This document shows, piece after piece, positions 40,021 to 53,600 of a DNA stretch of 64,000 nt. A program made the position numbers and the translations under genes. Positions within the stretch are counted from its first letter, which is position 1. The number at the start of each line of letters is the position of its first letter. Source of the DNA: Phyllobates terribilis (lineage: Eukaryota); the NCBI RefSeq assembly GCF_046119375.1, contig NW_027362764.1, positions 102,486,001-102,550,000 on the forward strand, in the 5' to 3' direction. The notes beneath the pieces were generated by a model that was not told the origin of the DNA, made no database searches, and saw only the letters and a list, made by a program, of their open reading frames with translations.

Positions 40021-41329
40021 CCAGTGTGGGGAGTCAAAATACTTTGTAGGTTGGGCTTGTGGGGGCATAAGACTGTGTGGTGGGAAATCCAATATAGGGA
40101 CATTACACTGTGTGTGGAAGGCACTGTGGGGAGGGGGGCATGAAATAGGTGCTATACTGTGTGGGAACACCAATGGTCTTCACTAGGGGAATATTGCTGT
40201 GTGGTCTGTGAGGATGTATAGGAAGCACTGGCTGAGGTTAGAATACTGTCTTAAGATATAAATTCTGTCAGCGCACTAGAGGCACTGCAGTTTTTGTCCC
40301 TCTTTCTTATCATTCAAAGTTGGGAAATATGAGAACTTATTAATTAGTAAGTGAGACAAAATCATTCCCCCCAATACATCTGTTAAACTACAGATAAAAT
40401 GGACTTTAAAATACAAAAAAGGGGACGTGATAATATAATCTCTGAGCGCTGCAGCAGTTTTAGATTATGCAGTGACTGATTACATATGATTTTCTGCTCT
40501 AGCGGCAATTAATTGAAGGAGCGGGAGAAATAACAGGGATAACATTTCTATTCAAATGAGGCCAATTTTGAAGAATAAGATATCTGCCATCTGTTAATAT
40601 CAGATGAAACGGCGTCATTTTTGCTGGTGGGTAGGCTCGGTGATGCAATGTTATTGCTGCACTGATCAAATATGACCATTTTGGCAATGGAACGACACTT
40701 CAGAAGCGCACATCACAGCAGCTGATTCAGCTTTTAGAGCTCAGCTAAATTATATGAGAACAGTAACAGCCATTGTTAAAAAAGGCTGTTTGGAAAACAG
40801 TTTGTGACATTTCTATACGTCTTTTTAAATAAAGGTATAAAATAACCATTACTTCTGTGTTATCCTGTGTTTTTACCACACACTGCCACATATATTGTAT
40901 ATTCTTGCCAAATACATTTGTAATCTGGTATAACAAAAATTCAAGCTTAAGGGCTTTAAAGGATGCTGCAAAATTTTATATTTGCAACATACACGATCTG
41001 TCATGAATTTCTTCCAAATTTGCAGCTGTTTCACCCATTGCAATAATGCATAATCTGCATCATGAATAATCTTCTGCAGCAGATTTCATGCATCTGTTGT
41101 ATATGGATATGGAGAAATTCCAATGTAAACCTTGGATCTAAGGGGTAGTGTTTCTCCTTGTGGAGAGTGGCATGCCAGGTCTGGAACACCAGTATGAGGA
41201 GACTTAAATGCCTTCCATGCTCCTCTGGGAAATTAAATGTGCAAATTGTCTCTTCAGAGAGAAAGAGGACTTGAACTCTAGTGCCACGTATTGGAAGTAG
41301 CAATCCTACAAGTCATTATCGACCCTTTA

Positions 41330-41717
41330 AACGAGTTATCCACTTCTTTCACATTGATGCCCTATGTATGATCGGCCGAGGTCCCGCACGCGGCACCCAC
41401 GCTGATCAGCTTTTATCGGTGCTGCCGGCAGCGGCCGCCGGCCGGAAGTCCTTCCCTGCGGTGCTTGCCTGTCAAGTTGTAAGTGGCCGCCGCTTTTTAC
41501 TGCACATCCGCCTCCTATTCAATTGAATGGGAGGCGGATGTGCAGTACCCCGCACCGGCCACTACAACTTGACGGCCAAGCACCGCAGGGAAAGACTTCC
41601 GGCTGGCGGCCGCTGCCGGCAGCACGGATAACAGCCGCTTGCCGGACCCTGGCCGATCATATATTGATGCCCTATCCCACAGATAGGGCATCAATGTGAA
41701 AGTAGTGGACAACCCCT
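41330..41717. mobile_element. T2/Kolobok-type MITE (near whole-element palindrome), TTAA TSD
   Basis: TTAA|ACGAGTTATCCACTTCTTTCACATTGATG ... CATCAATGTGAAAGTAGTGGACAACCCCT|TTAA. Confidence 0.85.
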
Positions 41718-41750
41718 TTAACGAGCCTTGAAATATGACTTAAGATAAAA

Positions 41751-41832
41751 GCCAAATCAGAATCTCAATTTGTAGACAAGGTGTTTTGGGGTATTGCCCC
41801 TCATCAGTGCAAAGTATGAGATCTGATTTGGC
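41751..41832 (-). ncRNA. Type I hammerhead ribozyme (G12 appears mutated)
   Basis: Minus: TTTGCA-CTGATGA-GGGG CAATA CCCC-AAAA-CACCTT-GTC-TACAAA, closed by extended stem GCCAAATCAGATCTCA / TGAGATTCTGATTTGGC. Confidence 0.75.
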
Positions 41833-42264
41833 TGGGTGAGAGGGTAAGACTTGGATCTAAGGGGTAAAGTTTCTCCTAGTGGAGAATGACATGCCTGGTC
41901 TGTCATGCCAGTATAAGGAGACTTAAACACCTTGCATGCCTCTGTGGGAAATTAAATATGCAAATTGTGTAAACCTTAAAATTTAGAAGCAATTGCAGGT
42001 GGAGACTTTCACATGTCCAACAATCACGGTCTAAGTATGGACCACAATGTCCAGACCGTCTGTGGGTCTCCTACCCTGAAATCAACAGCCTCATAAAACA
42101 TATGAAACCACCCTTACATGCCATTGGAGGCATCTGGAGGTACAGTAGGGGGCTTATGCATCTATATCATAGCATATCTTATACATATATTATCTATAGG
42201 TCTCCATCAGATTTAATATCAATATTCCATTCTTTCGATGTCACACACGTAAAAGGAACCTGAG

Positions 42265-42527
42265 CATGCTCGCCGAGCTTTTTCAGCGTGCTCGGGTGTT
42301 ATGTTTTAGTCACTCCGTGCTCATGATTTGAGACTGTTTGACAGGTTTAATACATGTGAGGTATGCCTAAGAAACAGGCATTCCTCACATGTATTAAAGC
42401 TGTCAAACAGTCGTAAATCATGCACACAGCTTGACTAAAACATAACACCCGAGCACGTTGAAGATACTCGGGAAACACCCGACCATGCTCATAAATCTTG
42501 AGTAACGAGCATGCACGCTCATCACTA
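42265..42527. mobile_element. Short hAT MITE, left TIR deleted
   Basis: Ends CGCTCATCACTA|AACCTGAC; left flank has AACCTGA then GCATGCTCG. Confidence 0.55.
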
Positions 42528-46277: not shown

Positions 46278-46818
46278 CAGGTGCATCTCACAAAATTAGA
46301 ATATCATCAAAAAGTTAATTTATCTCAGTTCTTCAATACAAAAAGTGAAACTCATATATTATATAGAGTCATTACAAACAGAGTGATCTATTTCTGTTAA
46401 TGTTAATGATTATGGCTTACAGCCAATGAAAACACAAAAGTCATTATCTCAGTAAATTAGAATACTTTATAACAACAGCTTGAAAATGTTGGCCTACGGA
46501 AATGTATGTTCAGTAAATGCCCTCAATACTTGGTCGGAGCTCCTTTTACATCAATTACTACATCAAGGTGGCAATGTGGCATGGAGGCGATCAGCCTGTG
46601 GCACTGCTGAGGTGTTATGGAAGCCCAGGTTGCTTTGATAGCAGCCTTCAGCTCGTCTGCATTGTTGGGTCTGGTGTCTCTCATCTTCCTCTTGACAATA
46701 CCCCATAGATTCTCTATGGGGTTAAGGTCAGGCGAGTTTGCTGGCCAATCAATCACAGTGATACGGTTGTTTTTAAACCAGGTATTGGTACTTTTGACAG
46801 TGTGGACAGGGGCCAAGT
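46278..46818 (-). mobile_element. Tc1 3' fragment, family of 22186-25018
   Basis: TA|CAGGTGCATCTCACAAAATTAG; LAPVHT..WPANSPDLNPIENLW..GAPTKY on minus. Confidence 0.9.
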
Positions 46819-48389
46819 CAGGGCCGGGGGTGCGGTTACAGTCTCCGCTCTGTATACTCAGTGATGACTGAACAAGCGCTGCCCCCATTACTGATACCCA
46901 ATGCTGGCGGGGAGAATAAAGTTAATTTTCTCCCTGCTGCATTCGGCTGCATGCAGGCACCGGACAGCAAAATGCTATTACCCTGCAGCTTAACCGCATA
47001 TCTGCAGGTTAACAGCATTATTTCTGCTGACAGCTTCCCTTTAACTTCTCACATTTCCAGCACTGTCCCTATCTATTCCCAAACTACAAAAACGCCTCAT
47101 CCTGACTGCTCTTGCAGTGTGAACAGTGACCCCAATAATTAAAAAATTGTGTCATTACTATGATTACCCTCTTCCCCCAAAAAATGCTACAGAGACTTTG
47201 TGTCAGATAGACGGTGCCTCTAAAAATTATAGTGTCCCATGCAAAGAATTAATGCTCCCACTATCCAACCTAGAAAGTAGTAATGCCCCCTGTATACTCC
47301 TATAAAAGTTATAACATCCCAAGTGCCCCATCAAGCAAAGTTGTGTTCCCTTAAAGTAATAATGCCCCCCAAAAAAGTAATGATGCTTCCCTGAGAGCCC
47401 CAATTAAAAAGTAACAATGCCCCTATTTAAAACAAATGTCCTGAGTGCCCCCAAAGCTCTCTATATACTGTTTTATGGCCTCCAGCTACTTATACACTAT
47501 ATGATGGCCCCCACAACCCCTTATACTCTGTATGATGGCCCCTATAGCCCCATATATACTGTATTATGGTCCTCACTAGTGTTGAGCGAGCACTAAAATG
47601 CTCGGGTGCTCGAAGCTCGGGCCGAGCTCACCGTGTTACTCGGGTGCTCGACCCGAGCAACAAGCCCAATGTTAGTCTATGGGAGACCCGAGCATTTTTG
47701 CAGCGGCACCCCCGGCAGTCTGTAGAAAGCCTAAAAAGTGCCCAAAACGATAGTGACAGTGCTCAAATGACATGGGGACAGCATGGGGATGTCCCCAGGA
47801 AGCATTTCTGACCCCAAGGTCACTGCTGTCAACAACATGGTCAGAGGTATTAAGCCAATTTTACGGGCTCACAATGAAATGTTCAAAAACGAAACTGAAA
47901 GTGCTTTCCTGTGAAATATGTTAAGGAACATCCTTTCCAGGGTAAAGACTTGTGTATAAGGTAAAATAAATAACCAAAAATACTCCTCCACACCTTGGGC
48001 TATGTTCACAAGTAGCATTTTTTATGCATTTTTGCACTTTTGTATTGCTTTCAACCGTGACAAATGCATTCACCGGGAAATGTCATTTTAACATTTTACA
48101 ACCTTATCTGGCCATGTGCTGTGTGACACATGCATACAGTGCTGAAAAGCCATGGGAACAGCATCGGGAAGACCCCTGGAAGCATCTCTGACACCTAGGT
48201 CACTGCCTAAAAGTGTGCCCATCAGAAGTGATCCTTGCCGCATCAGAAGATGCAGACTTGCAACTATCCCCGTGCAAGTCCTTGTCCCAGGGCAGTGTTC
48301 AATTGTACCTCCCCCATTCCTTGCAATGCAAGCGCAAGTATGCAACCTGCCATCCACCCACCCCCAGGCAGCAATACCATACTGCTTGC

Positions 48390-50645: not shown

Positions 50646-53600
50646 TCACCCTGGTGGTATAGTGGTGGTGGAGGCTGAGGATAAGCGCAAAAAACAGCCG
50701 AAATGAGGAAGCGTATACCCATGTGTGGGTGTGAAGCAGTGCATGGGAATACACCTCCCGAAATAACACAGTGGATTTGACTTTGTTACTCTGCTGTCAT
50801 TTGGTGGTGATGAGTAGTCTGGCCCAATCCAGCCCTTGTTCATTTTGATAAGGGTCAGCTTGTCAGCATTGTCAGTTGACAGGCGAGTGCGCTTATCAGT
50901 TATAATTCCCCCAGCGGCACTAAAAACACGTTCCGATAACACGCTAGCGGCAGGGCAGGCCAGGACCTCCAAGGCGTACAGAGCGAGTTCATTTCAAGTG
51001 TCCAGCTTGGATACCCAATAATTAAAAGGCACAGAGGAATCACGGAGGACGCTGGTACGGTCGGCAAGGTACTCCCTCACCATCTTTTGAAACTTTCCAT
51101 TCCTTGTGAGAGTACCCCGCGCCTCAGGGCCTGTAAGCTGGGCGAGTCTCAGAAAACTGTCCCAGAACGTTGACAATGTTCCCCTGCCTCTGCTGGATTG
51201 GAGTTGCATCTCTCTCGCCTGTACGCCTTGGTTGGGCAACGAACTGTGACCTCTGCCGCTAGCGTGTTCAGATTGGAAGTTTTTTAACAGTTCTGCACCA
51301 AGGGCCTTCTGGTACTGCCCCATTTTTGTAGACCTCTTCACCTCAGGAATAAGAGCGTGAAAGTTCTCCTTGTAGCGGAGGTCTAAAAGTGTCACCAACC
51401 AGTAATGACTGTCACCCAACATTTTGACAAAGCGAGGGTCACGGTTAAGGCAGTGTAACATAAGTCAGCCATGCGTGCCAGACTGGTAAATGGCAAGACT
51501 TCGGTGTCCTCACCAAGATGACGACTGATCATGCTCTCCTCCTCCTCCCCCCTGTCCTCAGGCCACCAACGCTGAACCGACGGTATGACAGTTGTACAGG
51601 TACTACCGTCTACAGCACATGATACCAGCTCCTGTTCTTCCCCATTGTCCCCCAATGCACGTTGGGATGAGATGAGGCTGGGCTGTGTGTAATTGCCCGC
51701 TACGGCTTCTTGATCCATCTCACCATACTCTGGCTGCAATGCCTCCTCTTTAATTCTCTGCAGAGAGCGTTGCAAAAGACAGACAAGTGGGATGCTGACA
51801 CTAATGATGGCATCATCACCACTCACCATCTTGGTGGACTCCTCAAAGTTTGTCAGGATGGTACATATGTCAGACATCCAGGTCCACTCCTGAGGTCTTA
51901 TGTGTGGAGTCTGACCTGAATATCGACGGCCTTGTTGCAGCTGGTACTCCACAACTGCTCTCTTCTGCTCACATATCCTTTGCAACATGTGGAGGGTAGA
52001 GTTCCAACGTGTGGGGACATCACACACCAGTCGGTGTGCCGGAAGCTGCAAAAGCTGCTGCCACTCAGCAAAGGCGGCGGAAGCTGTTGCCGACTTCCGA
52101 AAATGGGCTGACAGGCGGCGTACTTTGACGAGCAGATCTGGCAACTCTGCGTACTATTTAAGAAACCGCTGAACCACGAGGTTAAGCACATGAGCCAGGC
52201 ATGGTACGTGTGTGATCTCGCCTCACCTTAGAGCCGCCACCAGGTTACGGCCATTGTCACACTCGACCATGCCTGGATGTAGGTTCAGCGGTCTCAGCCA
52301 CAGATCTGCCTGCTCTTTCACAGCTGTCCACAACTCACAAGCAGTGTGAGGTTTATCACCTAAGCTTATGAGTTTCAGCACAGCCTGTTGCCGCTTGGCT
52401 GAGGCAGTACTGCAATGCTTCCAGCTTGTAACTGATGTGGAGATATCTGAGATGGAGGCTGAACATGAGGAGGAGGATGATGCGCAGGAGCTGTACGCTG
52501 TGGGGGCAACTCTGACTGACATAGGGCCTGCAATCCTCGGTGTGGGGAGGATGTGTTCCGTCCCAAGGTCCGACTGGGTCCCAGCTTCCACTATGTTTAC
52601 TCAGTGTGCCGTCAGCGAGATGTACCTTCCCTGGCCACAAGCACTTGTCCACGTGTCCGTTGTCAGGTGGACTCTCCCAGTAACTGTGTTGTTGAGGGCA
52701 CGGCAGATGTTTTGGGACACGTGCTTGTGTAGTGCGGGAATGGCACACCGGGCAAAATAGTGTCGGCTGGGGACCGAGTACCGAGGGACGGCCACCACCA
52801 TAAGGTTGCGGAAGGATTCCGTCTCCACCAGCCTAAAAGGCAGCATTTCCAACGCAAGCAGTCGTGAAATGTGCAAATTTAGGACTGTGGCCTGTGGGGC
52901 GTTGGCTGCGAATTTGCGCTTTTGTTCAATGGTCTGGGATATGGACAAATGAACGCTGCGGTGGGACGTGGATGCTGTTTCTTGAGAAACTGCCATAACA
53001 AGTGAAGACTGAGAGGAGGGGGCATCTTTGCATGCAGTATGGACAGGGGATTGCCTTGCATGCACAACAGGGGGTTCTATCACACGCACAACAGTGGAAG
53101 AAGCGGTGACACCCGCTGACACTGGTCGTGGACCCTGGGGTTAGCCCCACAAAGTCGGGTGTTTTGCTGATATGTGCCTTATCATGCTGGTGGTGTTCAG
53201 GCTGGTAGTTTTGTCACCCCTGCTGATGCTGGCCTGGCAGGTGGTACAAATGGCCTTTTTGGGGTTATCAGCAGAGTCTTTAAAAAAATTCCAGACTCTG
53301 GAAGACCTACCGGTTGTACTGACAACGTCCCTCGTGTTGGTGTTACGGGGTACGGTTGTCTGCCTTCTGTCTGCGGCCACCACACTGCTTCTTCCTGCCT
53401 GTTGGGGTACTCTGCCTGCCTCCCTCCCTGCCTCCCTCCCCCTGTGTGCTTCTGGCCTCGTTCTGCGTGTCCTCCTGCCACGTTGGGTCAGTTACTAGAT
53501 CATCCACCACCTCCTCCTCTTCCACTTCTGCACCACTGTCCTCCTCCTCACTTCGTGGCAATTGTGTCTCGTCATCGCGTCATCGTCCACCTCTTGTGAC

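Follow-up and report, generated by a model that had tools for sequence, protein, structure and literature searches.

The window, that is, the whole stretch of 64,000 nucleotides of Phyllobates terribilis DNA analysed here, carries on its minus strand a decayed member of the known class of non-LTR retrozymes (Table 1). The copy shows a direct repeat (41125-41249 and 41844-41968; 125 nt, 84% identity, spacing 719). As a preliminary description of this DNA had recognised, the repeat forms a tandem unit once a miniature inverted-repeat element (MITE) is removed; the period is, however, 328 bp and not 327 bp when the MITE together with one TTAA (391 bp) is taken out. The MITE is palindromic and TTAA-flanked. 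Its right end reads TTAA-AGGGG and its left end is decayed, with TTAA on both sides. T2-MITEs are defined by a TTAA target and a terminal AGGRR (PMC6004289), and the right end can be read as a putative T2/Kolobok-type terminus. The 10-bp target-site duplication (TSD) had been overlooked. It bounds the insertion, and the element therefore extends from 41134 to 41967 and comprises 1.35 monomers and one hammerhead. The window has another palindromic MITE-like element at 42273-42471 (96-nt arms, 86%), which is the source of spurious miRNA matches.

Table 1. Features of the retrozyme copy (positions in the window; m, position in the natural monomer; E1 and E2, 3′ end sites)
Feature	Position	Strand
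TSD, left copy, TGTAAACCTT, 10 bp	41124..41133	
Retrozyme insertion, 1.35 monomers, 443 bp without MITE	41134..41967	minus
'Tail' between the family-wide 3′ end sites E1 and E2	41134..41238	minus
TTAA-flanked palindromic MITE, later insertion	41327..41721	
Hammerhead stem I, 3′ arm and extension; C.A mismatch at 41773	41750..41774	minus
Type I hammerhead core	41775..41807	minus
Hammerhead stem I, 5′ arm with UAC internal loop and extension	41808..41834	minus
Partial upstream monomer (m2-m116), source of the direct repeat	41853..41967	minus
TSD, right copy, TGTAAACCTT, 10 bp	41968..41977	

The window hammerhead and its surroundings

The hammerhead core on the minus strand (41807-41775) had been recognised correctly. 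It comprises CUGAUGA, a 4-bp stem II (GGGG-CAAUA-CCCC), AAAA in place of GAAA, and the GUC site, and it is joined to a long stem I with a folding z of -5.8 (0 of 200 shuffles as good). The cut is predicted after GUC, between 41775 and 41774, and the 64-kb window contains only one such core. The AAAA, a G12-to-A change at 41787, had been noticed, whereas two more defects had not: a G-to-U change at 41779 breaks the palindromic stem III, and 41809 and 41773 form a C.A mismatch in stem I. With GAAA changed to AAAA, two further mismatches and a TTAA MITE in the element, the hammerhead is predicted to be dead. An Rfam search at E ≤ 10 scored no hammerhead in the window copy; at one of three loci searched, an intact relative matched Hammerhead_HH9 with E = 0.0028 and 26.8 bits, under the gathering score of 52. 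Its one, decayed core places the window copy below the two complete hammerheads taken as the mark of an active non-LTR retrozyme, and a copy with one hammerhead is inactive by definition in a recent preprint (bioRxiv 10.64898/2026.07.22.740005). Having a single, predicted dead hammerhead, the window copy could therefore not yield a circle.

The 21 best matches to the window copy (98-100% identity) map to C4 at 100.2-102.5 Mb with spacings of mostly 60-140 kb; dispersed relatives are approximately 88-91% identical to the window copy. Because all 21 copies of this array carry the AAAA change, the MITE and both TSD copies, we suggest that the copy decayed first and was multiplied later within the segmental array. 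The window as a whole is one unit of this segmental tandem array, which holds at least 21 copies (G000:C4:100.2-102.5 Mb, 98-100% over the query). The array unit also carries a minus-strand protein kinase gene (motifs at 31344-31203, 29797, 29646 and 29327; Pkinase profile E = 2e-4, under the cut-off), which we take to be MAST-like. Transposase-like fragments lie on the minus strand at 46523-46921 and 50646-52153, presumably Tc1-like and hAT-like to judge by their motifs; a Pfam search of 51392-52153 gave no match.

Size, composition and fold of the family

The genome-wide search for the unit that the preliminary description had called for returned, in the 10.6-Gb genome, 231 exact intact cores of the window subtype, 2,999 intact degenerate cores and 4,507 exact matches to a 21-mer elsewhere in the unit, with 0 matches in each reversed-pattern control. 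The 21-mer matches are spread evenly, the first 100 covering 239 Mb. Extrapolation from two samples gives 15,600 and 35,800 copies, the firm values being lower bounds only. The family is abundant and forms head-to-tail units of 328-332 bp with GAAA in the core, which bears out the proposal of a retrozyme family and answers the objection that its consensus might lack GAAA. The tandem arrays expected at the outset are borne out in part: head-to-tail units exist, but the copies are mainly dispersed 5′-truncated and inverted insertions with few long arrays. Among the first 100 cores listed there are one run of four, one run of three and four pairs, with 317-332-bp spacing, and only 17 of 224 mapped loci hold two hammerheads in tandem inside one arm. 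A young 332-bp subfamily, which has kept an intact core, occurs in tandem runs whose units are 97-99% identical to each other. The natural dimer of the unit has stops in all six frames, i.e. it is non-coding, and the ends of the unit are not LTR-like. One other repeat, which has TG...CA-like ends and may be a solo LTR, breaks into the unit or adjoins it at L024, L191, L264 and L273 and is also present beside L042; twice it sits at m193-195, next to the cut site.

Among copies picked by the 21-mer, and hence blind to the hammerhead, G occupies position 12 in 44 of 54, and the dinucleotide there reads CG in 29, TG in 11 and CA in 6 of 53. This pattern points to CpG decay, as had been suspected for the AAAA of the window copy. 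Of 47 hammerhead-blind copies, 23 retain an intact core. The family has a canonical type I hammerhead with a 6-bp helix I, a 4-bp helix II and a conserved core. Compensatory pairs occur in stem II (G-C in 166 and C-G in 26 copies, with 3 discordant) and stem I (T-A 174, A-T 15), and a further stem pair covaries (T-A 85, T-G 56, C-G 25); this covariation is at the level of subfamilies and reflects few inherited events, not independent changes. Since the stems show compensatory change and the core of the young subfamily is intact, the hammerhead fold was probably selected. Stem III is a palindrome, ACAC-N-GUGU, predicted to form a self-duplex of -8.8 kcal/mol and no hairpin alone; dimer-acting amphibian hammerheads share such a stem III (PMC7229834, PMC4209133). 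Circular folding of 14 of 42 natural monomers, with 20 shuffles each, gave a median z of -3.4 (+0.6 to -7.6), and the antisense strand also folds well. Contigs of four sequencing runs, three of them guessed to be RNA and one of unknown type, contain sequences related to the unit and were rejected as RNA support, as they come without strand, ends or level; the circle junction in these contigs is the same as the genomic tandem junction and hence was not used as RNA support either.

The class to which the family belongs is known. Axolotl Rtz331 and Rtz353 and newt satellite 2, which are metazoan non-LTR retrozymes (PMC7229834), share with it a non-coding unit of approximately 330 bp with a GC content of 41-46%, a canonical type I hammerhead whose palindromic helix III is weak, an arrangement in dimers to multimers, TSDs of more than 4 bp, and coexistence with Penelope-like elements (PLEs). 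In contrast to these, the present family is mostly dispersed, truncated or inverted and has a helix III of 3 bp with a CNG loop. Non-LTR retrozymes are reported from all seven amphibians sampled, with a mean unit of 316 bp, as likely PLE derivatives (bioRxiv 10.64898/2026.07.22.740005), and the Xenopus and vertebrate retrozymes described there share with the family dispersed monomers and co-occurrence with Neptune/Poseidon PLEs; only one of nine tested Xenopus dimers cleaved in vitro. The newt genome paper (PMC11872487) makes no mention of hammerhead, retrozyme or Penelope. Amphibian retrozymes, including those of Xenopus, have already been described. What the present analysis adds is the insertion footprint of the family.

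Junctions of the insertions

We mapped 224 loci onto a natural monomer whose cut site comes directly after m194. The set is not random, having come from pattern searches and representing mostly the earliest entries for C1-C3; the remaining 20 copies of the segmental array were excluded, as were 7 loci that overlapped or duplicated others. The 3′ ends of the 383 segments concentrate at two fixed internal sites approximately 101 nt apart, E1 (median m12; 170 segments) and E2 (median m113; 131 segments, together 301), with 2 ends near the cut. These medians correspond to approximately 41238 and 41137 in the window copy, whose 3′ end is at the distal site E2 (m116) and whose truncated 5′ end is at m2. 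Head-to-head insertions combine E1 and E2, one each, in 60 of 63 classifiable pairs (p = 4e-15 versus independent choice), a count that excludes the 36 of 99 pairs with at least one end outside E1/E2. Perfect TSDs of 8-15 bp, with 71% AT, flank 53 of 223 loci, compared with 2.8 expected from shuffled pairs; the other 170 have no perfect TSD of at least 8 bp.

The 5′ ends are scattered. A pile-up at the cut, hinted at by 6 of 104 ends in m191-200, was rejected when such ends were counted across the genome: searches for 5′ ends precisely at the cut found 21, of which 14 were true truncations, against 35 and 34 found at two control positions, with 20 of 30 and 17 of 30 examined being truncated. 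Because 5′ ends at the cut show no excess over the controls, the template was not usually a cut monomer. Of the 104 segments in the hammerhead-blind set, 51 span the cut and 21 are longer than one unit. Reverse transcription thus reads across the cut site, and the template would therefore be uncut or re-ligated. One single insertion (L356) has arms of 3.6 and 1.3 units with E1 and E2 ends, a 13-bp TSD and 97-99% identity between units.

An RNA step could be dispensed with if the family were satellite DNA spread by unequal crossover and gene conversion, which we regard as highly improbable. Alleles within the arrays are common to all units in 14 cases, to subsets of units in 42 and confined to single units in 342. 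Of the 42, 32 are rare alleles in L360, whose 5.9-unit arm is what local duplication would give, but the even dispersal, the TSDs, the polar truncation and the fixed 3′ ends argue against this origin. Satellite-type local amplification is a minor contributor, and dispersal by this means is refuted by the TSD and fixed-end data. At L360 itself (G000:C1:4862300-4865600), the alleles common to subsets of units indicate local duplication after insertion.

LINE insertions also show 8-15-bp TSDs, 5′ truncation and inversions, the last of which arise by L1-type twin priming. A SINE-like element moved by a LINE reverse transcriptase would share these three features. However, neither end class carries a poly(A) or simple-repeat tail at the mapped loci, and the two arms both stop at fixed positions inside a circularly permuted unit, the second position lying further 3′ in that unit, which makes such an origin very unlikely.

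Penelope-like elements and the proposed route of mobilisation

The insertions show what marks PLE-type insertion, namely a tail on one of two inverted arms, 5′ truncation and a short TSD. PLEs form partial tandems and inverted 5′-truncated arms with a 30-40-bp tail on one arm (PMC8557442, PMC3846280), and rotifer Penelope has TSDs of 8-10 bp (PMC3846280). In vitro, the anole PLE protein makes nicks in both strands and extends them, beginning at two internal RNA positions by which the tail is defined (PMC11167929). Anole Poseidon PAc (PMC11167929), rotifer Penelope (PMC3846280) and the non-autonomous Chlamys/MRC1 (PMC8557442) have in common with the family two reverse transcription start sites past the hammerhead, a tail on one arm, head-to-head 5′-truncated arms, short TSDs and AT-rich targets. 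The unit differs from them in having no ORF, a canonical instead of a minimal hammerhead, and a tail of approximately 101 nt versus 30-40 nt. For retrozymes, PLE mobilisation has been proposed in PMC7229834, in passages that contain no junction analysis, and the main text of the Xenopus preprint does not use the word 'tail' and leaves junctions unanalysed (bioRxiv 10.64898/2026.07.22.740005). In the literature consulted, which covers subscription journals thinly, we found neither fixed double ends nor arm asymmetry for any retrozyme.

Resident PLEs behave in a similar way. Neptune-like families (L103-L128), assigned to this clade by the Cys-rich segment preceding GIY-YIG and not by a tree, stop at either of two 3′ positions separated by 75-95 nt, namely cut+93-108 in 6 copies and cut+173-186 in 5; this spacing exceeds the 30-40-nt tail given in the literature consulted. 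Another resident family ends at +116 and +211, and the members of an inverted PLE pair (L119/L120) have one of the two ends each. A tail near 100 nt fits resident enzymes, because the ends of the Neptune-like PLEs lie at such distances. Two loci, L373 (G000:C4:301.14 Mb) and L374 (C3:208.10 Mb), have open frames of 808 and 805 aa with minimal hammerheads right after the stop, and their proteins are candidate active enzymes. Several of the L103-L128 PLEs have variant hammerhead cores such as UUGACAAAG or AUGAAUAAG.

The PLE-like architecture could also mean that the copies are 5′-truncated pLTR ends of an ordinary autonomous PLE. PLE-type coding DNA lies within the fetched flank in 6 of 224 loci, and two units (L129 and L315) were reached from the PLE side. 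However, no ORF or 3′UTR is shared as a flank across the 224 loci, and the DNA upstream of a unit is either a further unit or unrelated sequence. The unit at L129/L283 sits mid-ORF, that at L258 has a separate TSD, and that at L315 lies approximately 1.1 kb downstream of the endonuclease match and is absent from 5 sister PLE copies. No pLTR resembling the unit was found in 99 GIY-YIG PLE loci, which represent only a small fraction of the thousands of candidates; 30 + 40 of them came from Pfam GIY-YIG matches, and 29 are related to the L258 ORF, with three of these extended. Where a hammerhead was recognised in these loci, it is of the minimal type, unlike the canonical type of the unit. The pLTR reading is thus very unlikely and largely refuted, and the copies are not, as the preliminary description had considered, always attached to a Penelope RT/GIY-YIG ORF; there is no tie to a PLE ORF. 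In Xenopus, 24 of 57 families match a known transposable element, nearly all of them PLEs (bioRxiv 10.64898/2026.07.22.740005), whereas no matching pLTR was found here. The unit is non-autonomous, its probable partner enzyme being a PLE that pLTR matching does not place among the 99 loci. At L129/L283, L184, L213 and L258, units lie inside PLE coding DNA or right next to it, and the sequence of that DNA differs between the loci. We rejected template-switch chimeras with PLE mRNA as an explanation of L129, L184, L213 and L258 taken together, as the neighbouring PLEs differ between loci and, at L129 and L258 in particular, there is a mid-ORF insertion and a unit with its own TSD, respectively; L184 and L213 may individually have this origin.

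We conclude that the element in the window is very probably a decayed copy, 1.35 units long, of an abundant 328-332-bp non-LTR retrozyme, likely inserted via target-primed reverse transcription by a PLE-like reverse transcriptase-endonuclease acting in trans. The footprint matches the Penelope 'tail' mechanism operating on uncut or re-ligated RNA. From features read in the DNA (the unit, the family size, the compensatory stems, the two fixed 3′ ends, the ragged 5′ ends, the asymmetric arms and the TSDs) we infer transcription, dimer cleavage, circularisation and PLE-driven twin priming at E1 and E2, and propose the following hypothetical route, in which (i) tandem copies with intact cores would be transcribed; (ii) paired hammerheads would cut through a palindromic stem III dimer, and the monomers may be ligated into circles; (iii) a PLE protein, probably of the Neptune type, would nick both strands of AT-rich DNA 8-15 nt apart; (iv) cDNA would be started at one of two internal sites, approximately 146 and 247 nt downstream of the cut, and where both nicks prime, one at E1 and the other at E2, back-to-back arms would result; (v) the reverse transcriptase would pass the cut site, sometimes through several units. 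The window copy would have started at E2 and stopped after 1.35 units; afterwards it would have lost G12 by CpG decay, gained the MITE and been multiplied passively in the segmental tandem array.

The nature of the template admits two readings. It is a real possibility that a linear uncut read-through transcript of tandem copies serves as the template, with the same element and enzyme, and that hammerhead and circle stand outside the mobilisation path. The 5′ ends are not at the cut, most arms are one unit or less (91 of 224 loci have arms longer than 328 bp, and 8 longer than 656 bp), and in anole Poseidon hammerhead cleavage is not needed, as hammerhead mutants insert normally and unprocessed RNA is the main substrate (PMC11167929). 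On the other hand, the stems show compensatory change between subfamilies, the young subfamily has an intact core, and two single insertions (L356 and L357) of 3-4 near-identical units with mostly unit-private mutations fit a homogeneous template. More tentatively, we hypothesise that the insertions record a PLE reverse transcriptase dimer copying the hammerhead-made 328-332-nt circRNA, in which each subunit would prime from one of the nicked strands at its own site, E1 or E2, and could roll around the circle several times.

In summary, the window copy is an ordinary dead repeat, and its value lies in the family. The mobilisation of animal retrozymes by PLEs has, in the sources available, been proposed from co-occurrence and pLTR similarity only. 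The junctions of more than 200 copies provide a counted footprint, with two start sites, one per arm, a TSD and read-through of the cut. For an in vitro test of how small ribozyme RNAs re-enter a vertebrate genome, this footprint and the family supply the precise RNA positions, a young template of 332 bp and candidate enzymes of 805-808 aa. If copying of the circle is true, the insertions would be direct evidence for the circRNA-to-genome step that has been assumed in animals, and the presence of the young subfamily and of open-frame enzymes in one genome makes a test of this possible.
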